Positions 3,497 to 30,891 are shown, counted from the stretch's first letter. The stretch: DNA of 32,000 bases from Alkalilimnicola ehrlichii MLHE-1 (GCF_000014785.1 NC_008340.1:2670001-2702000); one strand, 5' to 3'. A program made the numbers and translations. Notes: generated from the letters alone by a model not told the origin.

Positions 3497-4897
3497 ATGG
3501 ATGACCACACCGCCCCAGGAGGGAGCATGCGCCGTCCAGACGAGGGCACCCTTGCCCGTATCGCCGAGGCCCTGGCATTCACGCCCACGGCAGCCTACTC
3601 GGCCCCCCACGATTACCCGCACGCCGCGAACACCTTCGAGCCGGCGCCCCGGCTGGCCCGGGAGCGGGTGGACGCGGACGTCTACCGACTCTATGCCCAT
3701 GTGCCCTTCTGCAACTACGCCTGCTCCTTCTGCTGCTACGCCAAGAAAGTGGGTGTGGAGCGCGAGCAGATGGCGCGCTACGTGGCGACCCTGAAGCGGG
3801 AGCTGGAGTGGATTCCCGAAGGCACCCCGGTGAACCAGTTCTTTATCGGCGGCGGCACCCCCACGGCGCTGCCCGCCGACCTGCTTGATGAACTACTGGG
3901 CGCCATCGCCGGGCGGATGCCCTACCACGGCGACCCGGTGCACACGGTGGAGGCCTCGCCGGAGTCCATCAGCGACGCCCATCTGGCGGTGTTGCAGCGC
4001 CACGGGGTGCGGCGGGTGAGCATGGGGGTGCAGAGCCTGGATGATGAGGTGCTGGATTCGGTACGCCGCAGCCACGGGCCGGATCTGGCGCTGGAGACCT
4101 GCCGGCGGATTATCGATGCCGGCCTGATCCTCAACATCGATCTGATATACGGCCTGCCGGGCCAGACCCACGCCGGCTTCCGGCGCGATTTCCAGCGGGT
4201 GGCGGACGCCGGGGTGCACGCGGTGACCGCCTACAACCTGCGCCTGAATGAACGCACCCCGGTATCCCGGGCCCTGAGCCCGGGGGAGCGGTTCGACATC
4301 GCCGGGCTGATGGGGTGGCGGGCCTTCGTCCGTGACACCGCCGCCGAGTTCGGCTTCTCCCAGACCCGCTGGCATACCTTCAAGCGCCTGGACACCATCG
4401 CCGCCCGCCACCAGTGGCTGCCCACCGCCGGGGCGGACATGCGGGGCCACCAGTTCGGCATCGGCATGAGCGCCCGTTCGTCGCTGGGCCACAACGTCTA
4501 CCGCAACCACCACAATCTGGAAACCTACATGGCGCGGGTGCGGGACGGCGAAAGCCCGGTGCAGGAGGTGATCCGCCTGGGGCCGCAGGACCTGCGCACC
4601 CAATTCATCGCCCGCAGCCTGGGCGACGGCCAGGTGCTGTCCAAGGCCCGCTACGCCGAGGTGTTCGGCAACGCCATCGAGGCCGACCACGGCGAGACGC
4701 TGGCCCGGTTGGCCGCCGGCGGGCTGTTGGCCGACACCGAATCCTCGGTCAGCCTCACCGAGGACGGCCGCCTGTTGCACGACCTGGTCACCCTCTCCTT
4801 CTACCCCGGGCCGGCCCGGCAGCGGCTGCTGCAGCGGCTGGACACCTTCCAACTCACCGATCTGAGTGACCGCCGGCCCCGGCCAGCCCTTCAATAA
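3497..4897 (+). CDS. HemN-like radical SAM enzyme (coproporphyrinogen dehydrogenase / class C methyltransferase family)
   Basis: CxxxCxxC motif in VPFCNYACSFCCY and HemN-type FFIGGGTP motif. An alternative start at ATG 3527 is preceded by AGGAGG. Confidence 0.85.
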   Translation: MDDHTAPGGSMRRPDEGTLARIAEALAFTPTAAYSAPHDYPHAANTFEPAPRLARERVDADVYRLYAHVPFCNYACSFCCYAKKVGVEREQMARYVATLKRELEWIPEGTPVNQFFIGGGTPTALPADLLDELLGAIAGRMPYHGDPVHTVEASPESISDAHLAVLQRHGVRRVSMGVQSLDDEVLDSVRRSHGPDLALETCRRIIDAGLILNIDLIYGLPGQTHAGFRRDFQRVADAGVHAVTAYNLRLNERTPVSRALSPGERFDIAGLMGWRAFVRDTAAEFGFSQTRWHTFKRLDTIAARHQWLPTAGADMRGHQFGIGMSARSSLGHNVYRNHHNLETYMARVRDGESPVQEVIRLGPQDLRTQFIARSLGDGQVLSKARYAEVFGNAIEADHGETLARLAAGGLLADTESSVSLTEDGRLLHDLVTLSFYPGPARQRLLQRLDTFQLTDLSDRRPRPALQ

Positions 4898-8136: not shown

Positions 8137-10188
8137 TCAGTGGGCGTCATCGCCCGGGCCCGGGTCGTCCGGCGGCGCGTAGACGGCCTGCGCCCGGGTG
8201 TAGAACAGCGGGTCCCAGACGCCGTGCTCCGGGGGGCCGATGGCGGAGGCCTTCCAGCCGCCGAAGGGTGCCCGCGGGTCGATGGCCGCGCCGGCGCCGT
8301 TGAGTCGCAGGAGACCGGCCTGCGCCTGGGCCAGGAAGCGCCGCTGCACCGCCGGATCGTTACTGTACAGGGTCGCGGCCAGCCCCTGGGGCACGCCGTT
8401 GAGCCGGTCCAGCGCCTCGTCGAGGTCCGCCACCGGCACCAGCACCACCACCGGGCCGAAGCTCTCCTGCTGCATGCACTCGGCGTCCGGGGGCAGGCCG
8501 GTGAGCACAGTGGGGGCGTACCAGTTGCCCTGGGCCCAAGCCGGCGGCACCCGGCCGCCGCAGAGCACATTGGCGCCCGCGGCGCGGGCGCGGGCGACGA
8601 TGCCCTCGATCCGCGCCTGCGCGGCCCGGGAGACCAGCGGACCGACAACGGTGTCCGGCGCCTCCGGCCGGCCCGGGCGCAGCGCCTGCACCCGGGCCAG
8701 GAAAGCCTCGGTGAAGCGGTCCAGCACCGAGGAGGCCACCAACAGGCGGCGCACCGCGGTGCAGCGCTGGCCGGCGAAGCTGAAGGCGGCCCGGGCGAGT
8801 TCCCCGGCGGCCCGTTCCGGGTCGGCGTCGGCCATGACCAGGGCGGCGTTGTTGCCGCCCAGCTCCGCCTGCAGGGGCGTGCCGTGCAGCGCGCAGGCGG
8901 CCGCCACCTGGCGCCCGGCGGTGATGGAGCCGGTAAAGCTCACCGCCTGCACCCGGGCATCGGCGGCCAGGGTGTCGCCGGTGGCCGCCCCGCCCTGCAC
9001 CAGGTTCAGCACCCCCGGGGGCAGGCCGGCGTCCAGACCGGTCTGCATCAGCATCCGCGCCAGTTCCGGGGCCTCCGGCGCCGGCTTCCAGACCACGCTG
9101 TTGCCCCAGCGCAGGGCCGGTCCGATCTTGCCCAGGGGCAGCGCCAGCGGGTTGTTCCAGGGGGTGATGGCGGCCACCACCCCCCGGGGCCGGTGGCGCA
9201 CGCTCACCCCCGGCGCCAGGGCCCCGGGCGGGGTCGGTGCCATGGGCTCGAGGCTGGTGGCCAGCAGGGCCAGGGCGTAGTCGAACTCCGCCCCGGCCTC
9301 GAGGGAGGGCTTGCCCACCTCCCGGATCAATGCGGCCACCAGTTCGTGGCGCTGCTGTTGAAGCCGCGCTTCCCAGGCCTTCAGCATGGCAATGCGCTGG
9401 CTGTCCGGCAGTGCCGCCCAGCCCGCCCCGGCCGCCCGGGCGGCCTCCACCGCCGCGCCGACCAGGGGGGCGTCGGCGGCGCCGGTCCGGCTGAGGATCC
9501 GCCGGTGGTCACAGGGGTCGTGGCGGGTGAGCTGCTCCGGCGCGGCCGCCCGATGCCATTGCCCGGCGATGCAGGCGGCGGGCTGCAGGTCGCGCCCGGG
9601 TGTCGGCCTGCGCGTTGCCGCCCCGCCGTCATCCGGCTCACCCAGGCGCGCCCGGATGTCCGCCGTGGTCAGCGCGGCGCAGGCCCGATCCGCTAGGTGC
9701 CTCAGCGCCAGGCGGGCGTGCAGCGGGTCGTAGGAGGCCACCGCATCCACCGCCAGCCAGACCTGGAAACCGGCCTGGTAGGCGTCCAGCACGGTGGCCT
9801 GGACACAGGCATGGGTGTGCAGGCCACTGACGACCACTGTGTCCACGCCCTGCTCGCCCAGCCACGCCGCGGTCCCGGCCCCGCCGAAAGCACTGTAGTA
9901 GGGCTTGGCCAGGACGGCTTCACCCGGTGCCTCGGCCAGGGCCGGCGGTGGGGCCGCCCCGGGGGTGCCGCCGACGCAGGCCCAGTGGGCCCGGCGCTGC
10001 CAGTGGGGCATGCGGTTATGGCCGTCCGCGGCGATAAGGGTGCGGACATGGCACACCGGCAGGCTGCGGCGACGGAAGCCGTCCAGCAGCGTCCGGGCCT
10101 GCCGGATGGCGGCCCCGGCCTCGGCCGCATCAACCCCCCGGTCCAGGTAGTCCTGTTGCCAGTCCACCAACAACAAGGCGGCACGCAT
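8137..10188 (-). CDS. Fusion protein: N-terminal isochorismatase-family cysteine hydrolase plus C-terminal aldehyde dehydrogenase
   Basis: N-terminus has LLLVDWQQDY and VSGLHTHACVQATVLDA, typical of the isochorismatase fold. C-terminus has ALDH motifs ELGGNNAALV and FSFAGQRCTAV (catalytic Glu and Cys). I prefer ATG 10188, 2 nt after the upstream stop codon, over the track start at 10233. Confidence 0.8.
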   Translation of the reverse strand: MRAALLLVDWQQDYLDRGVDAAEAGAAIRQARTLLDGFRRRSLPVCHVRTLIAADGHNRMPHWQRRAHWACVGGTPGAAPPPALAEAPGEAVLAKPYYSAFGGAGTAAWLGEQGVDTVVVSGLHTHACVQATVLDAYQAGFQVWLAVDAVASYDPLHARLALRHLADRACAALTTADIRARLGEPDDGGAATRRPTPGRDLQPAACIAGQWHRAAAPEQLTRHDPCDHRRILSRTGAADAPLVGAAVEAARAAGAGWAALPDSQRIAMLKAWEARLQQQRHELVAALIREVGKPSLEAGAEFDYALALLATSLEPMAPTPPGALAPGVSVRHRPRGVVAAITPWNNPLALPLGKIGPALRWGNSVVWKPAPEAPELARMLMQTGLDAGLPPGVLNLVQGGAATGDTLAADARVQAVSFTGSITAGRQVAAACALHGTPLQAELGGNNAALVMADADPERAAGELARAAFSFAGQRCTAVRRLLVASSVLDRFTEAFLARVQALRPGRPEAPDTVVGPLVSRAAQARIEGIVARARAAGANVLCGGRVPPAWAQGNWYAPTVLTGLPPDAECMQQESFGPVVVLVPVADLDEALDRLNGVPQGLAATLYSNDPAVQRRFLAQAQAGLLRLNGAGAAIDPRAPFGGWKASAIGPPEHGVWDPLFYTRAQAVYAPPDDPGPGDDAH

Positions 10189-10190
10189 GG

Positions 10191-11339
10191 TCAGGCCCGC
10201 GCCCCCTGCAGTACTTCGGTCAACGACGCGCACAGGGCCTGGCCCATGGCCCGGGTGCCCACCGCGGTGGGCTGCGCGCCCTGAATATCGGCGGTGCGCA
10301 CGCCCCGGGCGAGGGTCCGGGCGATGGCCGTCTCCAGGGCATCGGCCAGTGCCGGCAGGCGGAAACTCTCGCGCAGCATCATGGCCAGCGAGCAGACCTG
10401 GCCGATGGGATTGGCCCGGTCCCGGCCGGCCAGGTCCCAGGCGGCACCGTGGGCGGTCTGGTAGACCGCCTGGCCGGCGGCGCCGTAGTTGCCGGACCAG
10501 GACATGCCCCGCGAGCCCATGAGCAGGCTGCCGCAGTCGCCCAGGATATCGCCGAACATGTTGGGGCAGACGATGACGTCGAACTGCCGGGGGTCGGCGA
10601 TGAGCTGGTAGGCGGCGTTGTCCACCTCCAGGGTCCGGCAGCGCACGGCGCCGTGCTCGCCGGCGACCGCGGTCAGGGCGTCGTGCCAGAGGGCGCTGAT
10701 GGCAGGCACGCCGCCCGGTTTGGTGACAACGACCAGGTCACCGCGCCGCTGCCCGGCCAAGCGGAGGGCCGTGCGCAGGATGCGCTCCACCTCGTCGGCC
10801 CGGTAGCGGCAGACCTGGTAGGCGCTGCGCGCCGCACCCTCGCCTTCACTGCCCCACTCGCCACAGTAGAGCCCGCTGGCATTCTCGCGCACGATGAGGA
10901 CGTCCGCCGAGCGGGCGGCCTCCGGGCGCAGCACGCCGGCATCAGCCAGGGCGGGCCAGTGGCGCAGCGGGATCAGCTTGCAGTAGAGGTCGAAGTGCCG
11001 GCGCAGGTCGTAGACGAAGCGCCCGCCCCCGGGGCCACAGAGCACCGCCCCGCCCTGAGCGAAGACCTGAGCGCAGAAGTCGCGCACCTCCGGGGTCAAG
11101 CCGCGACCAGTGAGGCGCTCGGCCTGCCGGCCGATGGGCCCGCCGGTGCGCACCTCGAAGCGCTGGCCGGTGGCCTCGCCGAGGAGCCGCAACAGCGAAA
11201 GAGCAACGTCGATGACTTCCGGGCCGACGCCCTCCCCCGGCAGCACCCCGACCAGAAAGGCCTCACCGCGCTCCGTGCCCGTGCCACGGGGCGGTGCATG
11301 GTCGGTGCCGGGGTGCGACGGGCAGGCTTCGGGGTGCAC
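10191..11339 (-). CDS. Isocitrate/isopropylmalate dehydrogenase family oxidative decarboxylase (IPMDH/tartrate-DH-like)
   Basis: VLPGEGVGPEV N-terminal motif and family signature NMFGDILGDCGSLLMGSRGM. The GTG start at 11339 gives an extension of about 20 aa, so the start is uncertain. Confidence 0.8.
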   Translation of the reverse strand: MHPEACPSHPGTDHAPPRGTGTERGEAFLVGVLPGEGVGPEVIDVALSLLRLLGEATGQRFEVRTGGPIGRQAERLTGRGLTPEVRDFCAQVFAQGGAVLCGPGGGRFVYDLRRHFDLYCKLIPLRHWPALADAGVLRPEAARSADVLIVRENASGLYCGEWGSEGEGAARSAYQVCRYRADEVERILRTALRLAGQRRGDLVVVTKPGGVPAISALWHDALTAVAGEHGAVRCRTLEVDNAAYQLIADPRQFDVIVCPNMFGDILGDCGSLLMGSRGMSWSGNYGAAGQAVYQTAHGAAWDLAGRDRANPIGQVCSLAMMLRESFRLPALADALETAIARTLARGVRTADIQGAQPTAVGTRAMGQALCASLTEVLQGARA

Positions 11340-21162: not shown

Positions 21163-23766
21163 TCAGTTGCCGTCGTCAAGCACCCGGCAACGGATGTCGT
21201 AACGCCAGGCGGTACCGGACTGCGGGCCGATGACCGTGATCTTGAAGCTGTCCACGGCCCCCTTCATGAAGATGGCGTCGGCCTGGCCCCGACCCGGCCC
21301 GGCGATGCCCCCGGGATAGAGGGGATCACCCTCGTAGCGGGAGGCGCCCCGCCAGCCAGTGTCGTGCACCACGGCGCCGGCCGGGTACTCGACGATGTAC
21401 TTGTCCGGGATGGAGTAGGCGTCGAAACGCAGGTCGAAGACCGCCCCGGTGGGGATCTCGCTGATGTCCCAGTTGTCCACGGTGACGCCCTGGCCACCCT
21501 GGTCCGCGGCACGCCAGACGTTGCAGATGTCCAGCTCTTCGTCGCGCTCCTCCACCTCGCCGATGGTCACCACGGCACTGGAGTCCGCCAGTTGGCCATC
21601 CTCGCCGCTCAGCGTGGCCACAAGGCCGTAGGCCCCCTCCTGCCCGTAGGCGTGGGAGATGGTGGTGCTGGCGGTGTTATCCGCCCCCACGCTGACCTGG
21701 GTCGACCCGCTATTGCCGTCACCGAAGGCCCAGTCGAAGGTCACGGTGTCCACGTCGGGCGGGATGCGCACGGCATTCAGATTGAAGCTGTACTGCACCC
21801 CCACTTCGCCATCACTGAGGCCCGGCGGGTCGATGCGCAGGATCACATCGCTGGAGACCTCCACATTGGCCGGATTCTCCGCCGCATAGGGGAAGCCCAG
21901 GGCACCAAACAGGCCGTCATAGACACGGACATTCATGGCGTAGACCCCTGCCTCTTCCGTGGCGGGCACCCAGGTTTCAGTGGCATTGCCGTTGCCGTCG
22001 TTGCTGGCCTGGGCCACCACCTCGCGGGTCCACGGGGCATCGTTGGCCTGGTCGGTACGGAAGGCGACAAAGTCGGTATCCAGGCTGCCGATGCTTTGGC
22101 CGGCGCTCACCTGCAGGGAGAGGGGCTCTTCCACCTCGACCTTGGCCGGTGCCGCCTGAACCTGGGGATTGGGCGACTGCAGCAGCGAGCGATGGATATC
22201 CACCAGGTTCACGTTGGTGGAGACAAATCCGCTGATGTTTGCCGCCCCCGGCACCCCCATCCGATCAAGAATGCGCTCAAAGGCCTTGATGCTGTCCAGC
22301 AGGGGGCCGAAGCCGGCCTTGCCCTCAGCGAAGAACGACCACCGCGGGCCCCGATAGTCTTGCTCCTCCGAGTCGAAGGGGTACGTCATGCTCAGGTCTG
22401 AGCCGCCCCCGATCTCCAGGCCAACCAGGCCGGTGCTCGCCAGCTCCCAGCGCAACACCCGAACGTCCAGGTTCAGAGCGGCACCCATGTAGGGCCCCAC
22501 GCTGGCGGAAAACTCATTCTCGAGGCCGCCGCCAAGGTTGGCGAAATCGACACCATCGCCGAAGGTCTCGAACTCGTTGATACCCCGAAAGCCTTGGACG
22601 CCGGTATAGCCAATGCCCAACTCCATCGAAGCACCCTGGTCGAGTTCTATCCCGCTCAGGGAGAGCTCACCCGCCTGATAGCTGCCCGCCACCTTGAACC
22701 CTACTGAAGGCTCCAGGCTGGGGGTGAGCAATACCGGCCCAACCACCGGCACGGCGGCAAAGGGCACGGAACGAAGGCCCCGGCTGCAGTTCACGTCGGC
22801 GCTGCCGCCCCCGGAAAGCGTGACACCGCCCAGGCTGGCGTTAAGGTGGCCCTGCCCGTCCAGGTAGATGTCAAAGCGGTTCAGCGAGCGGTTGCTGATA
22901 TCCAGATCCACCCGCGGGACCAGCGCGTAATTGTGGTTGATGCTCAAACCGGTCACGCCGATATTCAGCACGCTGCCGCCGAGTTTGCACTCCAGGCCAC
23001 CCTGGATTTGTTGAACGGCCGCACCGCTGACCCGGTCTTCCGCGGCCGCGCCCGACACGCCGGCACCCTCCGGGCGCCCGTCGTCGTGCCCGTCTTCATC
23101 CAGCACCCCGCCATAGTTCAGGGGCGTGCCCTGAGCCTGGATGCTCAGATTCTCGAAGGCGTCGGTGAGCTCGGCCGGTTCGGTCTCAAGCACCACGCGA
23201 TTGCCGTGCACCGTGACCTCGGTGACCCGGTCCAGCAGACCGGCCCGGTCGCCACTGACCAGCACGTCACCGGGCGCCAGGCCCTCGGTCTGCTCATTGC
23301 GCTGCAGGACCACCCGGGCGGTCAGCTCGTCCTCGTCGGTGAGTCGGTCGTCCACCACCCACCCGGCATCGACGTAGAGCGCACCGGGGGCCAGGTCGGC
23401 GATAGCGGCCAGGGCCATCACCGGCTCCACGCCCTCGGCGGAGAGCTGGATATTGGCCGACCCGATGGTGTGCGTCAGTGCGGTGATCCGGCCGCTGGCG
23501 TCCACCCCGATCAGATCCGGGTTGGTGGATTCGTACTCGATGGTGGCGGTTCGATCGACGCGGCCGTTATCCAGTACGACGTAGGCCTCGATCTCCGCGC
23601 TGTCCCCGGCGCCGGAAAGGATGATGGATTGGTCGGAGACAATCTCGATGCGTTCCGGCTCGCCCCCCAGGCCCCCACCGAAATCCTCATCCTCGACACA
23701 CCCGGCCATTAATACTAGAACAAGTAAAATAATTAGCAGTTGGATGAATCTGCTTAATCGATACAC
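21163..23766 (-). CDS. Large secreted lipoprotein with a Big_2-like Ig domain and a PKD domain
   Basis: Signal peptide plus lipobox (LVLMAGC). Big_2-like segment (…AEIEAYVVLDNG…STNPDLIGVDASGRITAL…). PKD motif FDWAFGDGNSG…ISHAYGQEGAYGLVATL. GTG start with AAGGAGGA 4 nt upstream. Confidence 0.75.
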   Translation of the reverse strand: MYRLSRFIQLLIILLVLVLMAGCVEDEDFGGGLGGEPERIEIVSDQSIILSGAGDSAEIEAYVVLDNGRVDRTATIEYESTNPDLIGVDASGRITALTHTIGSANIQLSAEGVEPVMALAAIADLAPGALYVDAGWVVDDRLTDEDELTARVVLQRNEQTEGLAPGDVLVSGDRAGLLDRVTEVTVHGNRVVLETEPAELTDAFENLSIQAQGTPLNYGGVLDEDGHDDGRPEGAGVSGAAAEDRVSGAAVQQIQGGLECKLGGSVLNIGVTGLSINHNYALVPRVDLDISNRSLNRFDIYLDGQGHLNASLGGVTLSGGGSADVNCSRGLRSVPFAAVPVVGPVLLTPSLEPSVGFKVAGSYQAGELSLSGIELDQGASMELGIGYTGVQGFRGINEFETFGDGVDFANLGGGLENEFSASVGPYMGAALNLDVRVLRWELASTGLVGLEIGGGSDLSMTYPFDSEEQDYRGPRWSFFAEGKAGFGPLLDSIKAFERILDRMGVPGAANISGFVSTNVNLVDIHRSLLQSPNPQVQAAPAKVEVEEPLSLQVSAGQSIGSLDTDFVAFRTDQANDAPWTREVVAQASNDGNGNATETWVPATEEAGVYAMNVRVYDGLFGALGFPYAAENPANVEVSSDVILRIDPPGLSDGEVGVQYSFNLNAVRIPPDVDTVTFDWAFGDGNSGSTQVSVGADNTASTTISHAYGQEGAYGLVATLSGEDGQLADSSAVVTIGEVEERDEELDICNVWRAADQGGQGVTVDNWDISEIPTGAVFDLRFDAYSIPDKYIVEYPAGAVVHDTGWRGASRYEGDPLYPGGIAGPGRGQADAIFMKGAVDSFKITVIGPQSGTAWRYDIRCRVLDDGN

Positions 23767-24020
23767 AACGTCCTCCTTGAGCCCGGTCCCCCGGGCCTGT
23801 AACCATTATTCTTAAGGCTTCTTAAAGGTTTCCCTGATACCCGCCGAGCGGCGGACGGCCTGTTATACACCGCCTTGGGTTCCGCGGTAAATACCGAGAA
23901 AAGGCACCTGTAAAGGAAGCCGACATTCGCGAAGAAACGCCTATTGATCAAGAAGCATTAATTAAAAACACGCGAGAAAAATCTGTCTTTTCTCCATAGA
24001 GGCAAGGGCCGTCCCCTCCC

Positions 24021-24562
24021 GTGCTTGCGAGCCCCACGCCCCGCTACGCGGGCCCGACTCAACGAGGAACGGCGCTCCCCGTCATCGCGAGGGCCGAAGG
24101 CCACACCCCCGTCATCGCGAGGGCCGAAGGCCCGTGGCGATCCAAGCGGCGTATGGACTGCCGCGTCGCTGCGCTCCTCGCAGTGACGGGGGAGGCGCCC
24201 CCACCGTCATCGCGAGGGCCGAAGGCTTTCCCCGTCATCGCGAGGGCCGCGGGCCCGCGGCGATCCAAGCGGCGTATGGACTGCCGCGTCGCTGCGCTCC
24301 TCGCAGTGACGGGGGAGGCGCCCCACCGTCATCGCGAGGGCCGAAGGCTTTCCCCGTCATCGCGAGGGCCGCGGGCCCGCGGCGATCCAGGCGGCGGGTG
24401 GACTGCCGCGTCGCTGCGCTCCTCGCAGTGACGGGGGAGGTGCCCCCACCGTCATCGCGAGGGCCGAAGGTTTTCCCCGTCATCGCGAGGGCCGAAGGCC
24501 CGTGGCGATCCAGGGCGGTAGACTGCCGCGTCGGCTTCGCCTCCTCGCAGTGACGGTGGGGT
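24021..24562 (+). repeat. REP/BIME-like tandem array 1: four copies of a composite unit of about 122-123 bp
   Basis: GTCATCGCGAGGGCCGAAGG half-sites start at 24081/24111, 24206/24234, 24328/24356 and 24451/24479. Each long module pairs GTCATCGCGAGG with CCTCGCAGTGAC as an imperfect hairpin. Degenerate GCAATGAC remnants continue to about 24642. Confidence 0.9.
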
Positions 24563-24766
24563 GGTGCAATCACGGAATCGGGAGCCCGCAATGGCGGAGT
24601 GCGGGGCCTTGCAATGACGACGAGACGACTCCTGGCAATGACAGCTTATTCAATATTTCCTTAACAGATCTCCGCATTTAATGAGCTCACGGGCGTAACG
24701 CCCGGGGCACCAGCTATTGCGGCCCATGGCTCTTGATTTCTGCCCACCAGTGGTAGAGTAAGGCTC

Positions 24767-25591
24767 ATGAACAACCTGCTCACGACCCTGCACACGGCGA
24801 TGGACGAGGCGGCCCATCGGGTGATGGCCATCTACGCCGATCCCGACCGCTTCGATACCCGGCGCAAGGCCGATGACAGCCCGGTCACTGCCGCCGATCT
24901 CGCCGCTCACGACTGCCTGGTGGCGCACCTGCGGGCGGTGGCGCCCGACATCCCGGTGGTGTCCGAGGAGGCGCGCCCGGCCCCTTGGTCGGAACGGCGT
25001 CATTGGTCGCGCTGCTGGATCATCGACCCGCTGGACGGAACCAAGGAGTTTCTCAAGCGCAACGATGAGTTCACCATCAATGTGGGACTGGTGGAGGGCG
25101 GCCAGCCGGTGCTGGGCATGGTGGACGCCCCGGCCCTGGGCGAGCGCTATTACGCCATACGCGGTGAGGGGGCCTGGCGCCAGAGCGCTGGGGCCGAGCC
25201 GCGAAGCATTCGGGTGGTGGAGCCGCCCCGGGCCGGCGACCGCCCCTGGCGGGTGGTGGGCAGCCGGTCCCATGCCTCGGCGGAGACCCAGGCCTTCATC
25301 GAGCAGCTTCCTGAGGTGGAGTTGGTGCCCATGGGCAGTTCCATGAAGGTCTGCCTGGTGGCCGAGGGCCGAGCCGATCTCTACGCCCGTCTGGGCCCCA
25401 CCGGCGAGTGGGATACCGCCGCCGCGCAATGCGTGCTGGAGGAGGCGGGCGGCTGCCTGCTGAGCGCTGAGACCGGCGAGCCGCTGCGTTACAACGAGCG
25501 CGAGTCGCTGATCAACCCCTGGTTTATCGCCTGCGCCCGCCCCGACCCCGCCTGGCAGTTGCCACACGTCCCCCTGGCCGAGGCCCGTTAA
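24767..25591 (+). CDS. cysQ: 3'(2'),5'-bisphosphate nucleotidase
   Basis: Inositol monophosphatase family motif WIIDPLDGTKEF. The length and overall sequence pattern match CysQ. Confidence 0.85.
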   Translation: MNNLLTTLHTAMDEAAHRVMAIYADPDRFDTRRKADDSPVTAADLAAHDCLVAHLRAVAPDIPVVSEEARPAPWSERRHWSRCWIIDPLDGTKEFLKRNDEFTINVGLVEGGQPVLGMVDAPALGERYYAIRGEGAWRQSAGAEPRSIRVVEPPRAGDRPWRVVGSRSHASAETQAFIEQLPEVELVPMGSSMKVCLVAEGRADLYARLGPTGEWDTAAAQCVLEEAGGCLLSAETGEPLRYNERESLINPWFIACARPDPAWQLPHVPLAEAR

Positions 25592-25671
25592 TCTCGATCG
25601 ATTACTAATCCCATCGTCTAGACTGATTATTGAGACTCGGATTCGATTGAGGCCGCCTGCACCCTCCCCGG

Positions 25672-26424
25672 GTGCGGGCCAAACAGGGGATGCAGCGCAT
25701 GGGGCAGGCACTGTCGCGGTTCGACGAGGACCTCCGCAAACTGGCGCGGTTTGTGGAGGAGACGGAATCGGCGGAGCGGGGGCTGACCCAGCTCTCGCAG
25801 CTGGTCAGCCATGCGATGGGCTGCCGGCACTGCTCCATCATGCTCGTCAAGCACGACCCGGACAGCGGCGAGCCGCAGCTGCGGGTGCAGGCGCACCACG
25901 GCGACCTGCCCGAGGCGGCCTACGACGACGCCCAGCCCCTCGGCAGCGGCATCGCCGGGCGCGTGGCCAGTTCCGGCAAACCGCTGCTCATCTCTGATGT
26001 GGACCACTCGGAGTTCGCCGGCCTGGCCCTGCGCCAGTCGGGGAAGGGCCCGGACAGCATCTCGGTACCCATCGTGCTGGAGGATGAGGTGGTGGGGGTG
26101 ATCAACGTGGACAGCCCGGAGGGCGGCCGGCGGCTGGGCGAGGATGACCTGCGGATGGCCTCGATCCTGGCCCTGGTGGTGGCCAAGTCGCTGCACATCC
26201 AGCGGCTGCGCGGGTTGCTCAAGACCCACTTCATCAAACTGGCCCTGGCCCGCGCCCGCGCCGAAGGCAACGGCCCGGTCACTCACGCCCCGGAAAAGGT
26301 CGCCAAGCTGATGGCCCGCACCCTCTACCAGGAGATGGACAAGGCCGGCTTCTCCCGCGACCACATCCTGACCGCCGCCACCGAGATCATCAGCCAAGTC
26401 AGCGACGCGATGGACACGCGCTGA
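25672..26424 (+). CDS. GAF domain-containing protein
   Basis: GAF-like core (…GIAGRVASSGKPLLISDV…SISVPIVLEDEVVGVINVDS…). The start is uncertain: GTG 25672, ATG 25690 or ATG 25699. Confidence 0.65.
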   Translation: MRAKQGMQRMGQALSRFDEDLRKLARFVEETESAERGLTQLSQLVSHAMGCRHCSIMLVKHDPDSGEPQLRVQAHHGDLPEAAYDDAQPLGSGIAGRVASSGKPLLISDVDHSEFAGLALRQSGKGPDSISVPIVLEDEVVGVINVDSPEGGRRLGEDDLRMASILALVVAKSLHIQRLRGLLKTHFIKLALARARAEGNGPVTHAPEKVAKLMARTLYQEMDKAGFSRDHILTAATEIISQVSDAMDTR

Positions 26425-26439
26425 CAGACTCTCCCCTCT

Positions 26440-26640
26440 CCGTCGTCGCGAAGGCCGGGTAAACACTCCCACCGTCATCGCGAGCCCCCCTTCCCCGCTG
26501 CGCGGGCCCGAATCAACGAGGAACGGGGCACCCCTGTCATCGCGAGGGCCGAAGGCTTTCCCCCCGTCATCGCGAGGGCCGAAGGCTTTCCCCCCGTCAT
26601 CGCGAGGGCCGAAGGCCCGTGGCGATCCAGGCGGCGCTCG
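26440..26640 (+). repeat. REP/BIME-like array 2 (three short half-site modules plus a truncated long module)
   Basis: GTCATCGCGAGGGCCGAAGGCTTTCCCC repeated, then …GGCCCGTGGCGATCCAGGCGGCG. Same family as array 1. Confidence 0.85.
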
Positions 26641-26661
26641 GCACGACCGCGGCATACACCG

Positions 26662-26997
26662 CTATCGGTCGCGGTGGTTAGGGTGATCCCGTTGCAGTTT
26701 ATCCAGGGCCCGCTTGACCGATCGTTGATGTGAGCGGCCCAAGGCACGACGGATTTCCAGGGTGCCCACACCAATCGCCAGCAGCGCCACCGGGGCCAGG
26801 ATGACGCCGATGAGCGCAATAATGCCGGCGACCTCATCACGCAGAGACAGCACCAACCCGGCTATCACCCCCACCGCCAGCCCGCCGGTGACTACCACCA
26901 GCACTTTGACACGAGGCGGTTGCTCCTTGACCCACCACAGCAGTGGCGCTACTAGCAATAACGCTAACAGTTCCCAGGAACTTTCCGGCAGAGTCAT
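26662..26997 (-). CDS. Small integral membrane protein, unknown function
   Basis: Three hydrophobic segments. Lies 9 nt downstream of the lipoprotein gene on the same strand and shares its lower GC. Confidence 0.5.
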   Translation of the reverse strand: MTLPESSWELLALLLVAPLLWWVKEQPPRVKVLVVVTGGLAVGVIAGLVLSLRDEVAGIIALIGVILAPVALLAIGVGTLEIRRALGRSHQRSVKRALDKLQRDHPNHRDR

Positions 26998-27006
26998 GGC
27001 GTTAGC

Positions 27007-28560
27007 TCATCCCTGGAAAACGAGTTGTCGCTGCTTTCGGTCCAATACCTCGTCCCCTCTGCGAAGTTCAGCGACCACGGTATCCCGCACGCCGGATTCT
27101 GCCCCGGGCACAGTCATGGCATACCTTTGATCAGGTTGGATAGAGAACGTCCGGCTTGCAGAATACCCGTCAGTCCCCTCTACACTGAAATGGATGCTCA
27201 TCTCCGGGGCCTCGTCACAATCGACCCCAAGCTCGATACGATATGACTGACCCCGGCCCGGGGCCGACGGACTCAAGATCAGCTCATGCAGATGCGCATC
27301 CTTTCCGTCTTCCAACTCCAACTCTACGACAGCCGGTTGGCTGCCCGGCTCCGCGATGGATACCGCACCTGTTTCCGTCGTGCCGGCACCGCTGTACCGC
27401 GCCTCTACCATCACGGGGAAGTTGTCGTCCGGCCCCTTACGCATGTGCACTAGATCATTGCCGGCCTTATACAGCTTGACGGTGCCGTCAATCATCCCCT
27501 TAACTTCGGTGATTACCTGCCACACTCGCTTGACTCGGGGTACATTCGCTAGCAGCAGGACCGGCAGCCCGATCTTCGGAAAGGCCAGCAATAACCGAGT
27601 GACCGCGGCCACAAGGGTCTTTTCGGTTACAGCAGAGGCAACCTCATTCAAGGCAAAATTAAGACCACCAGACGCCAGCACTTCGCCAACCGTGGGAAGG
27701 TCATCCAGGCCAACTTCACCATAGAAACCGTCCTTATCAACGTCGGGCTTCAAGTCGATATGGACGCTAGGCGGTCGCAGCCAGTCCAACGCGATTGGGG
27801 GCACGCCGGGGCCGAAGCTGACCCTTCCGTCAATCTGCATTGCAGCATCAGCAGCCACCACGGCGGTTGCCTTACCACTGAATACGAGTCCGCATGCGCC
27901 CCTGGCCTGAACCAATATCTGTTGGCTGCTAAAGCTGCTAGCGAACAGACTAGCTTGGCCCATGACTGAGCCGCTGTCCGCATTTAGCGTCTTGACGGTG
28001 ATCCCCTCACCACCACGGGGAGCGTGCATCAGAGTTGCAGCGTGGACCGCATTCCCATTGCCATCGTCCGCTTCTTCTGCTTCCTGCTCGGCCTTCGCTA
28101 GTGTACTGCTATACGATTCGCCCTTACCAAGGTCACTGAACGTGAAGGCAACGTCGTCCTCTAGCTGCTCCAACTGCAGCCTTATGCCAGCGTTTTCCAG
28201 TTGTAGATCCAAATGGTCATCATCGACGACCAGCACTGTATTGTTCATGGGATCTACAGGGTCATTGACGACAACACGCCGGATGGCAACCACATTACCC
28301 GCTTCGTCACGGTCACCATAATAATGCGTGTAGGCTCCCGCTTTGGACTCCATAAACAAGATGCGCCCTTGCGGGTCGTCTGGGTAGAACGTTAAGCCTG
28401 CCCCGAATACTTCATTCTCCTTTAGGGCGGGACCATCTCCCGATTCAGTAGACTCCTCGTCGGTAACACACCCCACCAACAATGGTATGACCGGCATTGA
28501 CAGGGTTCCTGTCAATGCCTGGAGCAGGCGACGCCTTATCTTGTTGACTTCCTTGCCCAT
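27007..28560 (-). CDS. Secreted lipoprotein of unknown function (twin-arginine-like signal plus lipobox)
   Basis: N-terminus KIRRRLLQALTG…PLLVGC. AGGAAGG SD lies 5 nt upstream of the ATG. G+C is clearly lower than in the flanks. Confidence 0.65.
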   Translation of the reverse strand: MGKEVNKIRRRLLQALTGTLSMPVIPLLVGCVTDEESTESGDGPALKENEVFGAGLTFYPDDPQGRILFMESKAGAYTHYYGDRDEAGNVVAIRRVVVNDPVDPMNNTVLVVDDDHLDLQLENAGIRLQLEQLEDDVAFTFSDLGKGESYSSTLAKAEQEAEEADDGNGNAVHAATLMHAPRGGEGITVKTLNADSGSVMGQASLFASSFSSQQILVQARGACGLVFSGKATAVVAADAAMQIDGRVSFGPGVPPIALDWLRPPSVHIDLKPDVDKDGFYGEVGLDDLPTVGEVLASGGLNFALNEVASAVTEKTLVAAVTRLLLAFPKIGLPVLLLANVPRVKRVWQVITEVKGMIDGTVKLYKAGNDLVHMRKGPDDNFPVMVEARYSGAGTTETGAVSIAEPGSQPAVVELELEDGKDAHLHELILSPSAPGRGQSYRIELGVDCDEAPEMSIHFSVEGTDGYSASRTFSIQPDQRYAMTVPGAESGVRDTVVAELRRGDEVLDRKQRQLVFQG

Positions 28561-28694
28561 TTTAGCCTTCCTTGTGTATTCATCAGATAATCCGAAATTG
28601 ATCCGGTCAGCGGAGTATAGCCCACAAGCAAACAGGTGAGAGGAGACTACGCTCCCTAAATCACAATGCTGTGGCCACGCGGGGTGCCAACCGC

Positions 28695-28895
28695 AGCTTG
28701 GACTGACGCGTCGCTTTGCTTCTCGCAGTGACGGGGGGAGACGCCATCCCCGTCATCGCGAGGGCCGAAGGCCCGCGGCGATCCAGGGCGGTAGACTGCC
28801 GCGTCGGCTTCGCCTCCTCGCAGTGACGGTGGGGGAGGTGGCCTCCTCGCAGTGACGGTGGGGGAGGTGGCCTCCTCGCAGTGACCGGTGGGGGG
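28695..28895 (+). repeat. REP/BIME-like array 3
   Basis: One full long hairpin module (28751-28826), a partial right arm upstream of it, and three tandem CCTCCTCGCAGTGACGGTGGGGGAGGTGG modules. Confidence 0.85.
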
Positions 28896-28918
28896 TGGTG
28901 CCGCCGCCCCCGGGGCGG

Positions 28919-30100
28919 TTACGCAGGGTCCAGTGTGCGTAACGTGTGCCGGGCGATCATCAGCTCTTCGTTGGTGGGGATGATGTAGGCCGGGATGCGG
29001 CTGTCGGTGGTGGTGATGCGCCCGGCGTTGTGGGCGTTGGCCTCCCGGTCCAGGGTGATGCCCAGCCAGCCCAGTTGCTCGCAGATGGCGGCGCGCACCG
29101 GGGCGGCGTTTTCGCCGATGCCGGCGGTGAAGACCAGGGCGTCCAGCCCGCCCAGGGCGGCGGTGAGGCTGCCCACCTCGCGCACGGCGCGGTAGACGTA
29201 GTACTCCACCGCCTCGGCGGCCTCGCGGCGGTCGCTCTCCAGGAGCTGGCGCATGTCGGCGCTGATGCCGGACAGGCCGAGCAGGCCGGAACGGCGGTAG
29301 AGCAGGTCCTCAATCTCAGCGGCGTTCATCCCTTCGTTCTGCAGCAGGTAGAGGATGACGCCCGGGTCGATGTTGCCGCAGCGCTGGCCCATGGGCAGGC
29401 CGTCCAGGGCGGTAAAGCCCATGGTGCTGGCCACGCTCTGCCCGCCGTGCAGGGCGCACATGCTGGCGCCGTTGCCCAGGTGGGCGACGATGGTGCGCCC
29501 CTCGGCGGCTTGCCGGTCATGATCTGGCAGCACGGAGGCGATGTACTCGTAGGACAGGCCGTGGAAGCCGTAGCGCAGGACCCCCTTGTTCTCGTACTGG
29601 CGCGGCAGGGCGAAGCGCTGGGCGACGCGCGGCTGCTGGCGGTGGACGGCGGTGTCGAAGCAGGCCACCTGGGGCAGATGCGGGCGGACCCGGGCCACGG
29701 CGTGGATGGCGCGCAGGTTGTGAGGCTGGTGCAGCGGTGCCAGTTCGCAGAATCCGTCCAGCCGCTCAAGGATGTCATCGGTGATCCGCACCGGGTGGCT
29801 GAACTCCGGCCCGCCGTGAACCACGCGGTGGCCGGCGCCGATCAGGTCATGGCCCTCCAGCCTTTCCTCGAGCCAGCTCAACGCCCGGTCCAGGGCCTCA
29901 TCATGCCCATCGGACTCCGGTAATTCCTCGTGCAGCAGGCGTTTGCCCTGGTCGTCCTTGATCTGCAGCGAGCCGATGCTGGCACCCAGACCGTCGGCCT
30001 GCCCCCGGTAGCAGGGGGTCGGCGCCCCGCCGGCCACGGTGTACAGCGCAAACTTGATGCTGGAGGAACCTGCGTTGATGACGAGCAGGGCCTGGGTCAT
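28919..30100 (-). CDS. ackA: Acetate kinase
   Basis: N-terminal LVINAGSSSIKFALY motif and full-length AckA-like sequence. GGAGG lies 6 nt upstream of the ATG. Confidence 0.92.
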   Translation of the reverse strand: MTQALLVINAGSSSIKFALYTVAGGAPTPCYRGQADGLGASIGSLQIKDDQGKRLLHEELPESDGHDEALDRALSWLEERLEGHDLIGAGHRVVHGGPEFSHPVRITDDILERLDGFCELAPLHQPHNLRAIHAVARVRPHLPQVACFDTAVHRQQPRVAQRFALPRQYENKGVLRYGFHGLSYEYIASVLPDHDRQAAEGRTIVAHLGNGASMCALHGGQSVASTMGFTALDGLPMGQRCGNIDPGVILYLLQNEGMNAAEIEDLLYRRSGLLGLSGISADMRQLLESDRREAAEAVEYYVYRAVREVGSLTAALGGLDALVFTAGIGENAAPVRAAICEQLGWLGITLDREANAHNAGRITTTDSRIPAYIIPTNEELMIARHTLRTLDPA

Positions 30101-30200
30101 GGGGGGCCTCCGCGTGGTTCGTACTGTTTATGGTTGAATCGTCATTGTGACGGGCAAGGCGTTGAAGTGATAGGTACGCTGCTGCTCGCCATGATGTTAT

Positions 30201-30888
30201 GGATTGCTTCGCTGCGCTCGCAATGACGGGGGTGGCACCTCCCCGGCCCTCTTGATGAACATGGCCAGACGCTGCGGGCGCCCCCTACCCTCACTGCGAG
30301 CGCGGCCCCACCCCCACCGTCACTGCGAGGAGGCGAAGCCGACGTGGCAGTCTACCGCCCTGGATCGCCGCGGGCCTGCGGCCCTCGCGATGACGGTGGG
30401 GGCGTATCCCCCGGCCCTCGCGATGACGGTGGGGCACCTCCCCCCGCCACTGCGAGGAGCGCAGCGACGTGGCAGTCCATGCGCTGCCTGGATCGCCGCG
30501 GGCCTGCGGCCCTCGCGATGACGGTGGGGGCGTATCCCCCGGCCCTCGCGATGACGGTGGGGCACCTCCCCCGTCACTGCGAGGAGCGCAGCGACGTGGC
30601 AGTCCATGCGCTGCCTGGATCGCCGCGGGCCTGCGGCCCTCGCGATGACGGTGGGGGCGTATCCCCCGGCCCTCGCGATGACGGTGGGGCACCTCCCCCG
30701 TCACTGCGAGGAGCGCAGCGACGTGGCAGTCCATGCGCTGCCTGGATCGCCGCGGGCCTGCGGCCCTCGCGATGACGGTGGGGGCGTATCCCCCCGGCCC
30801 TCGCGATGACGGTGGGGGCGTATCCCCCCGGCCTGCGCGATGACGGGGGGACGGCTCCCCCCGCCTAGCGATGACGGTCGGCGGCCTT
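30201..30888 (-). repeat. REP/BIME-like array 4: inverted orientation, four near-identical units of about 127-128 bp plus degenerate ends
   Basis: G[TC]CACTGCGAGGAG starts at 30318, 30446, 30573 and 30700. Units 30446-30572 and 30573-30699 differ at a single position by eye. This is the reverse complement of the array 1-3 consensus. Confidence 0.9.
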
Positions 30889-30891
30889 TCC

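Follow-up and report, generated by a model that had tools for sequence, protein, structure and literature searches.

Intergenic tandem arrays of hairpin repeats in Alkalilimnicola ehrlichii: probable clusters of REP elements of the CGTC superfamily

The stretch of the Alkalilimnicola ehrlichii MLHE-1 genome analyzed here (GCF_000014785.1 NC_008340.1:2670001-2702000; 32,000 nucleotides, hereafter the window, with positions counted from its first letter) contains four arrays of hairpin-forming repeats, all of which occupy gaps between probable genes (sites 1–4; Table 1). We propose, with a probability of roughly 0.75, that these arrays are clusters of repetitive extragenic palindromic (REP) sequences of the CGTC-tagged superfamily, organized in a manner similar to the bacterial interspersed mosaic elements (BIMEs) of Escherichia coli and the neisserial intergenic mosaic elements (NIMEs).

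The repeats can be traced by a 12-nt head, GTCAYYGCGAGG, which, with at most one mismatch allowed, occurs 38 times in the window, compared with 1.16 occurrences expected from dinucleotide-preserving shuffles (shuffle maximum, 4). Of these heads, 37 are located inside the four intergenic sites, where they span positions 24081-30875, and the scan for the same head in the first 24 kb of the window found zero copies. This copy-free part encodes a glycosylation/nonulosonic-acid gene set that includes NeuB, a cytidylyltransferase, glycosyltransferases and a radical SAM protein. Head counts, Tandem Repeats Finder (TRF) and the gene gaps all bear out the original prediction, made from the sequence alone, of tandem hairpin arrays at four intergenic sites; the periods given there, 122-123 bp for array 1 and 127-128 bp for array 4, compare with the TRF values of 123 and 127, and the adjoining units of array 4, said to be nearly identical, share 99% identity. 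The predicted boundaries are only partly right. An array is indeed present at 24021-24562, with the correction that 24021-24080 is a leader module rather than a full unit and that the site reaches ~24642; the shorter arrays at 26440-26640 and 28695-28895 exist as well, albeit as runs of truncated arms, with the patterns a-a-a-A and b-A-b-b-b, rather than of the full composite unit. Searches of the window found no tRNA or tmRNA genes and nothing in Rfam at gathering thresholds, and array 1 compared with Rfam at permissive E-values produced only noise (miRNA and snoRNA models). There was no blastn match of the repeat unit among 72,556 plasmids, and a literature search with the repeat sequence strings recovered unrelated primer matches only.

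The elementary module is an arm of ~35 nt that consists of a CGTC tag, a 5-bp outer stem (AYYGC/GCRRT), a conserved internal loop (GA/CGYG), a 4-5-bp inner stem of free sequence with a 3-nt loop, and a CCA tail. The full arms are A (CGTC-ATCGC-GAGGGCCGAAGGCCCGYG-GCGAT-CCA), B (CGTC-ACTGC-GAGGAGCGCAGCGACGYG-GCAGT-CCA) and C (CGTC-ATTGC-GAGCGCAGCGAA-GCAAT-CC), and the arm version B2 has GGCGAAGCC as its inner part. Among the truncated arms, 'a' ends after GGCCGAAGGC, i.e., past the inner hairpin (~28-30 nt in array 1), and 'b' ends after GAGGAGGCC. Two non-identical arms in opposite orientation, with the tags outside and the CCA tails 9-10 nt apart, make up a heterodimer of ~76 nt, denoted A> <B, and this is the arrangement of 19 of the 19 dimers in MLHE-1 and the comparison strain SGAR-12. 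The two-part unit that had been predicted can be recognized in these terms, the long module being the A> <B arm pair and the short module being the truncated arm 'a'.

Placing every head with its strand yields the site maps included in Table 1. The first three dimers of array 1 belong to the A-B1 type and the last one (24479-24554) to the A-B2 type, the latter being 99% identical to the dimer of array 3 (28752-28827), and the [a + A-B1] units of array 4 are near-identical, with a period of 127-128. The leader module D of array 1 has a second copy at 26486-26534 that is 86% identical to it, and the head GTCATCGCGAGCCCCCCGCCCCGC at a fifth site of SGAR-12 (L001 ~3880-3930) resembles the D-module head. 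In both arrays 1 and 2, the D module (CCCCGCTRCGCGGGCCCGAMTCAACGAGGAACGG) follows a degenerate head at the upstream end (24032-24080 and 26486-26534), as a polar 'leader'.

Table 1. Repeat sites, arrays and associated features in the window (TRF, Tandem Repeats Finder; ORF, open reading frame).
Feature	Coordinates	Strand	Description
Site 1	23710-24766		Between divergent gene starts (PKD-like 848-aa gene / inositol-monophosphatase-family gene); map: D a AB a AB a AB a Ab c c
Leader 'D' module, array 1	24021-24080	+	Degenerate head, then CCCCGCTRCGCGGGCCCGAMTCAACGAGGAACGG
Array 1 core, by TRF	24079-24556		Period 123 x3.9, 92% matches
Array 1 core, by modules	24080-24555	+	Four units [arm 'a' + A> <B heterodimer, 76-77 nt]
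Degenerate C-type heads GTCATTGCAAGG, GTCATTGCCAGG	24607-24642	-	3' edge of site 1
Site 2	26425-26661		Between convergent GAF-domain gene and 111-aa ORF; map: D a a A
Array 2	26443-26594	+	Degenerate head, D module (26473-26534), two truncated A arms (26535-26594, 30-bp period)
Array 2 tract, by TRF	26531-26616		Period 30 x2.9, 98% matches
Orphan full A arm CGTCATCGCGAGGGCCGAAGGCCCGTGGCGATCCA + 7 nt of dimer spacer, GGCGGCG	26595-26636	+	No adjacent B partner; in register with intact dimers
Low-GC segment	26637-28694	-	2.06 kb, ~58% GC in a ~68-70% GC region (GC profile)
ORF, 111 aa	26662-26997	-	Hydrophobic, membrane-like by eye
ORF, 517 aa	27007-28560	-	Lipoprotein-like; LVGC motif read by eye as lipobox
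Site 3	28561-28918		Downstream of acetate kinase; map: b A b b b
Orphan degenerate B arm GGACTGACGCGTCGCTTTGCTTCTCGCAGTGAC	28695-28733	-	Faces the orphan A arm 2 kb away
Array 3	28751-28897	+	A-B2 dimer (28752-28827), then two more truncated B arms, 29-bp period
Array 3 tract, by TRF	28812-28894		Period 29 x2.8, 98% matches
Site 4	30101-30891		Between co-directional MaoC-PTA gene and acetate kinase; map (inverted): C b bA a BA a BA a BA a a
Single C-type arm GTCATTGCGAGCGCAGCGAAGCAATCC	30201-30228	-	Stem ATTGC/GCAAT
Array 4, inverted	30290-30888	-	Degenerate head, A-B2 dimer (30319-30394), three [a + A-B1] units, extra degenerate 'a' arms
Array 4, by TRF	30309-30817		Period 127 x4.0, 96% matches

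The structure that is conserved in these repeats is the single arm, not the long hairpin of the dimer. Folded as one long hairpin, the dimer attains -50.2 kcal/mol as RNA (z -3.8) and -26.5 kcal/mol as DNA (z -3.1); however, the two heads of a dimer always differ (TC vs CT or TT) and, because of this, the long hairpin carries mismatches. The pairing of GTCATCGCGAGG with CCTCGCAGTGAC around a conserved loop, described in the original prediction, contains two non-Watson-Crick positions, and the covariation supports a separate hairpin for each arm. In the window, the SGAR-12 sequence (L001) and 35 loci of other genomes taken together, the dinucleotides of head and tail complement each other in 120 copies (TC/GA in 70, CT/AG in 22, TT/AA in 26 and CG/CG in 2), with only a handful of non-complementary combinations. 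A hybrid arm at site 5 of SGAR-12, which combines an A stem with a B loop, still has a complementary outer stem that closes with GCGAT. When the structure ....(((((..(((((...)))))...)))))... was imposed on 40 distinct 35-nt arms, 93.3% of cells were paired compared with 79.6% in shuffles, and the covariation score was 0.325 compared with 0.115, neither value being reached in any of the 500 shuffles; slid controls gave 23-52% paired. Five of the 10 base pairs show changes on both sides. At least 4 types of outer stem and more than 5 types of inner stem are present, all of them complementary, the latter including GGCC/GGCC, CCCC/GGGG, GCGC/GCGC, GACC/GGTC and CCGC/GCGG.

Sequence conservation, conversely, is seen in the tag and the tail as well as in the internal loop (GAG / CGYG or CGAA). 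Within the tag, G2, T3 and C4 are invariant in the 40 distinct arms and position 1 is mostly C. The stem starts with an A-U pair (5-32) in 40 of the 40 arms, followed by a pair (6-31) that is U-A in 34 and C-G in 6, the latter in B arms. In the tail, C33 is invariant and CCA is the majority form, with CTC and CTA variants.

These features match those of the CGTC-REPs, a superfamily catalogued in 2013 (Di Nocera, De Gregorio and Rocco, 2013, BMC Genomics 14:522, PMC3733652). In that paper, CGTC-REPs are characterized by a CGTC tag with the alternatives TGTC and CCTC, a stem that starts with A-T, its first two positions being complementary A-T, and a CCA tail; they form mostly tag-outward (HH) dimers, with heterodimers common, and occasional tandem clusters of singletons and dimers, which are called rare. 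The paper reports them from five phyla, includes among them Neisseria dRS3 and Rickettsia RPE-4 and RPE-6, and states that in the species that carry them the tyrosine transposase genes are never flanked by CGTC repeats and that there is no associated RAYT (REP-associated tyrosine transposase). The A. ehrlichii arms share the CGTC tag, the A-T stem start and an unpaired CCA tail, and the resemblance extends to tag-outward heterodimers, tandem clusters, occurrence in several phyla and the lack of a flanking transposase. Clusters, however, dominate in A. ehrlichii. The arms fit the superfamily but none of its families 1-4, from which they are set apart by the text description of these families: families 1-4 have uninterrupted 8-9-bp stems with 4-5-nt loops (PMC3733652), whereas in the A. 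ehrlichii arm, 5 bp are followed by a conserved 2x3 internal loop and then by an inner stem of 4-5 bp that is closed by a 3-nt loop. The strain list of that paper does not include A. ehrlichii.

Several other systems are similar in organization. Like E. coli BIME-2 (tandem Y-s-Z2-l), the arrays combine two REP variants in alternating orientation with a fixed head-to-tail period, and they are likewise intergenic, including positions within operons, and vary in copy number between strains. The E. coli BIMEs are built of GTAG-type REPs and have a RAYT (TnpA-REP, PDB 4ER8), whereas the A. ehrlichii repeats have a CGTC tag and no RAYT was found; the A. ehrlichii unit also differs from BIMEs by an additional, co-oriented truncated arm. 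With REPINs (Bertels and Rainey, 2011), the repeats share an inverted arm doublet with a short spacer that could form one long hairpin, and the A-B2 dimer is REPIN-like in being near-identical at different sites; in contrast to the REPIN-RAYT system, there is no linked RAYT and most of the A. ehrlichii copies observed are in tandem arrays rather than singly dispersed. The arrays also resemble the Neisseria NIMEs bounded by dRS3 as mosaic intergenic arrays built around CGTC-1 repeats, although NIMEs consist of 50-150-bp RS repeats flanked by dRS3 and the sequence and structure of the A. ehrlichii arm differ from these.

The regular spacing of the modules, together with the possibility of drawing ORFs of 95-147 aa across the arrays, might suggest a CRISPR array or a protein-coding repeat, but the chance of either is practically negligible. 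Every period segment is itself repeated, such that there are no unique spacers, and no cas genes were detected in Pfam scans; a reading frame is not maintained over periods of 122/123 and 127/128 bp, and the translated array ORFs gave 3 weak database matches, of which the one locus examined (P0002, L044) is another REP array. The description of the arrays as BIME-like and not CRISPR thus stands, given that they consist of repeated palindromic modules only, in alternating orientation, with no unique spacers and no nearby cas genes.

The repeats are not limited to the window. In SGAR-12, a fifth array (L001:3777-4448) is located 3.7-4.4 kb past the window end, between DUF432 and MscS genes, and there is another array at the end of a short-read contig that extends to ~7.4 kb ahead of the window (L042:1-90). 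With two more arrays just outside the window, the element is not, as the original prediction had considered, absent elsewhere in the genome, and at least 6 array sites are documented across about 57 kb.

In a genome-collection scan, the exact 21-mer GTCATCGCGAGGGCCGAAGGC was detected at 35 loci, with hosts among Alpha-, Beta-, Gamma- and Deltaproteobacteria, Acidobacteriota, Gemmatimonadota, Omnitrophota, Peptococcaceae and a Fibrobacter metagenome-assembled genome (MAG). None of the 35 loci is from A. ehrlichii, either because its genome is masked in or absent from the collection or because copies outside the masked stretch are rare; A. ehrlichii presumably has a GTDB representative genome. 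Most of the 35 loci continue with CCGYGGCGATCC(A), which the scan did not require, paired with an inverted B- or C-type arm, and A/C heterodimers are found in other genomes. The 35-nt arm is close to invariant across Gammaproteobacteria, Acidobacteriota, Gemmatimonadota, Omnitrophota, Firmicutes and the Fibrobacter MAG. A metagenome scan with a 34-mer added 25 loci, several of them from soda lakes and with the same a>A><B arrays; the same architecture is seen in the metagenome examples L046, L050, L051 and L063. Heterodimer arrays with other periods occur at L044:9949-10399 (116 x3.9) and L046:675-963 (95 bp), and full arms are repeated every 46 bp at L018:1501-1613. An uncultured Burkholderiaceae MAG (L037:1216-1360) has truncated A arms every 27 bp ahead of a full dimer, and these arms are cut after GGCCGAAGGC, the same point as in A. 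ehrlichii.

The same dimer is also found at orthologous positions, with the same neighbor genes, in Erythrobacter/Porphyrobacter (L022, L029, L038 and L062), and there are further same-position dimers in related organisms (L035, L044, L057, L060 and L061; L028, L049 and L067). These cases indicate that individual insertions can persist across species, as reported for REPINs.

Comparison of MLHE-1 with SGAR-12 (L001, CP184336; a hybrid Illumina and Nanopore assembly of modest long-read depth) suggests that the arrays are labile. The unique DNA of the two strains is 99.1-99.9% identical and the arrays are located at the same four sites, but the array maps differ at all four. Site 1 measures 1000 bp in MLHE-1 and 1033 bp in SGAR-12, with a different unit arrangement. 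At the other three sites, the lengths can be reconciled in whole modules: site 2 (237 vs 487 bp) has gained two [A b] relative to MLHE-1 and is short of one 'a' in SGAR-12, site 3 (358 vs 387 bp) has one extra 'b' in SGAR-12, and at site 4 (791 vs 602 bp), two [B A a] units in MLHE-1 stand against two extra 'a' in SGAR-12.

The two dimer types are distributed differently. The A-B2 dimers (76 nt) are found once at each of sites 1, 3, 4 and 5 and twice at site 2 of SGAR-12, with 95-100% identity between sites, whereas the A-B1 dimers (77 nt) occur in tandem at sites 1 and 4 and are 96-100% identical within an array but 91-96% identical between arrays. At site 4, every A arm, including that of the A-B2 dimer, has the same GCAG loop variant, which indicates local homogenization. 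Recent amplification or gene conversion, as had been proposed from the near-identity of neighboring units, is supported by the higher identity within than between arrays, by the site-specific variants that neighboring units have in common, and by the whole-module differences between the strains at the same sites.

Given that short-read assemblies do not cross the arrays, such that the exact copy numbers are unverified, collapse or expansion of the repeats in assembly comes to mind as an alternative explanation. At each of the four sites, short-read (Logan) contigs break off at the array border or slightly within it, which confirms the junctions in independent read sets but not the copy numbers. 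We consider it very improbable that the arrays are artefacts of this kind: the same four array sites are present in two strains with separate assemblies, several independent short-read assemblies share the junctions of unique with repeat DNA, and related arrays are found in unrelated genomes and metagenomes.

A scheme for the origin of the arrays can be outlined in which A-B2 would be a dispersed founder dimer, present about once per site. Misalignment or slippage is the established behavior of close direct repeats, and at each site, direct repeats of 21-35 nt (the identical arm heads) could misalign in replication or recombination, amplifying either truncated arms, with periods of 27-33 bp, or [truncated arm + A-B1] composites, with periods of 122-128 bp; neighboring units would then be homogenized. 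Arrays would gain and lose whole modules quickly, and could thus diverge even where the unique DNA of two strains is >99% identical. From the sequence patterns, we infer that slippage or misaligned recombination between identical heads probably drives this module turnover.

An additional event may have occurred between sites 2 and 3, where an orphan A arm, followed by part of a dimer spacer, and a degenerate B arm bracket a low-GC segment (Table 1). Neither of the two ORFs of this segment has a match in Pfam, and the sole homolog of the 517-aa ORF among 5.8 billion proteins is Mlg_2376 of A. ehrlichii MLHE-1, i.e., it is an ORFan. The segment is identical in SGAR-12. Judging from the arrangement of the arms, the 2.06-kb segment may have entered a single REP dimer by insertion into its spacer. 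In Neisseria, the dRS3 repeat serves as an integration site for foreign DNA, a parallel to the 2-kb low-GC segment between the A. ehrlichii orphan arms.

At a distance from the arrays, an ORF on the minus strand (8137-10737) encodes a full aldehyde dehydrogenase domain in addition to an isochorismatase domain; the same gene is called at 683 aa in contig L042, and the start of the 866-aa ORF is probably too far upstream.

Turnover within arrays leaves the question of how the repeats reach new intergenic sites. A miniature inverted-repeat transposable element was considered and rejected: single dimers show no target-site duplication by eye, their flanks being C-rich/G-rich extensions of the palindrome. 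The same lack of duplications would be expected for HUH-type single-strand transposition, and the geometry of the repeats, with inverted hairpin arms, an unpaired tag, a short spacer and tandem clusters, is that of REPINs and BIMEs (PMC3116915 and PMC2817692). A classical REPIN/BIME system, in which a single-copy RAYT (TnpA-REP, a Y1 HUH enzyme) is encoded elsewhere in A. ehrlichii and flanked by the same arms, would account for both. Nevertheless, we consider such a system quite unlikely. The tag is CGTC, not GTAG, and no transposase domain was detected by Pfam in the window ORFs. As originally noted, no RAYT is present in the window, whether by Pfam or by phmmer with E. coli TnpA-REP, and searches for RAYT and IS200 homologs covering the window, L001 and the ~0.5 Mb that surround ~65 copies of many phyla gave nothing at E<=10; the phmmer queries were E. 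coli TnpA-REP, checked against PDB 4ER8, and an unverified IS200 TnpA sequence. These negatives agree with the published lack of a CGTC-REP transposase, and the statement in PMC3733652 that tyrosine transposase genes of CGTC-REP species are never flanked by CGTC repeats argues in the same direction; given that the CGTC-REPs described there come without a RAYT, a search for RAYTs would not be expected to give the answer. An all-vs-all comparison of ORFs near the copies identified no recurrent neighbor, only REP-encoded pseudo-peptides and orthologous loci, and the supplements of PMC2817692 do not list A. ehrlichii. The ORFs at 26662-28560 were examined as candidates for the missing enzyme and ruled out, being a lipoprotein-like ORFan and a small membrane-like protein, with no transposase.

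We infer, as the most economical account of dispersal, a trans-acting enzyme that would recognize the single-stranded hairpin together with the CGTC tag and the CCA tail. This putative enzyme would not be encoded beside the repeats. Dispersal and function are the weakest steps of the scheme. A bolder version, to which we give only a slim chance, is that the arms are the substrate of an undiscovered, widespread or horizontally spreading enzyme that is never adjacent to them, and that, in addition, the dimer spacer serves as an integration point for foreign DNA.

By analogy with E. coli, where REPs have been reported to act in mRNA decay and termination, the arrays might be functional RNA elements in the first place, with hairpins that stabilize or terminate transcripts and, for example, control how much MaoC-PTA message is present relative to that of acetate kinase. 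As RNA, the hairpins have a very high stability (-50 kcal/mol per dimer, z -3.8), the modules run as a>A><B in the same direction as the neighboring gene at 4 of 5 sites, and array 4 is located between co-directional pta-like and ackA genes. We nevertheless regard a primary RNA function as unlikely. Strains that are nearly identical differ freely in copy number, which is an argument against tuning; the same arms occur next to unrelated genes in many phyla; the gene starts on either side of site 1 are divergent; and the arrays have no sites resembling intrinsic terminators and no match to an Rfam family. A scan of 23.6-31 kb for promoters and terminators gave zero promoter-like sites and a single terminator-like one, fewer than the shuffle mean. 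Our position is that the repeats are selfish or neutral, with possible incidental effects on mRNA: where arrays are transcribed, e.g., inside the pta-ackA-type pair, stable hairpins could form structures between cistrons or at the 3' end of the RNA and so influence mRNA decay, and any host effect is probably secondary.

Several points weigh against interpreting the arrays as REP clusters of the CGTC superfamily with the properties outlined above. The arm stem is interrupted (5+5 bp), in contrast to the text description of families 1-4; subfamilies share descent, which inflates the covariation counts in part; and the copies in A. ehrlichii are documented at 6 sites in ~57 kb only, such that this may be a regionally confined repeat. 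The copy-number differences rest on two assemblies of different strains, and some of these differences could be assembly error. The enzyme search was limited to two single-sequence queries and gene adjacency, and the location of site 1 between divergently transcribed genes means that an RNA role cannot explain every array.

REP clusters and the CGTC superfamily are known, and the A. ehrlichii repeats appear to be an ordinary, well-resolved added example. In practical terms, the arrays break short-read assemblies of A. ehrlichii and could serve as strain-typing loci. They also provide a clean natural case in which a dispersed founder can be separated from locally amplified units, with whole-module turnover between near-identical strains. 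Judging by sequence conservation, the tag, the internal loop and the tail are what a protein recognition site would look like. No gene travels with the repeats around the ~65 copies examined; should a widespread enzyme that is never adjacent to its substrate indeed exist, it would be the missing 'CGTC-REP mobilase', and A. ehrlichii, with its actively changing arrays, would be a tractable system for its study.

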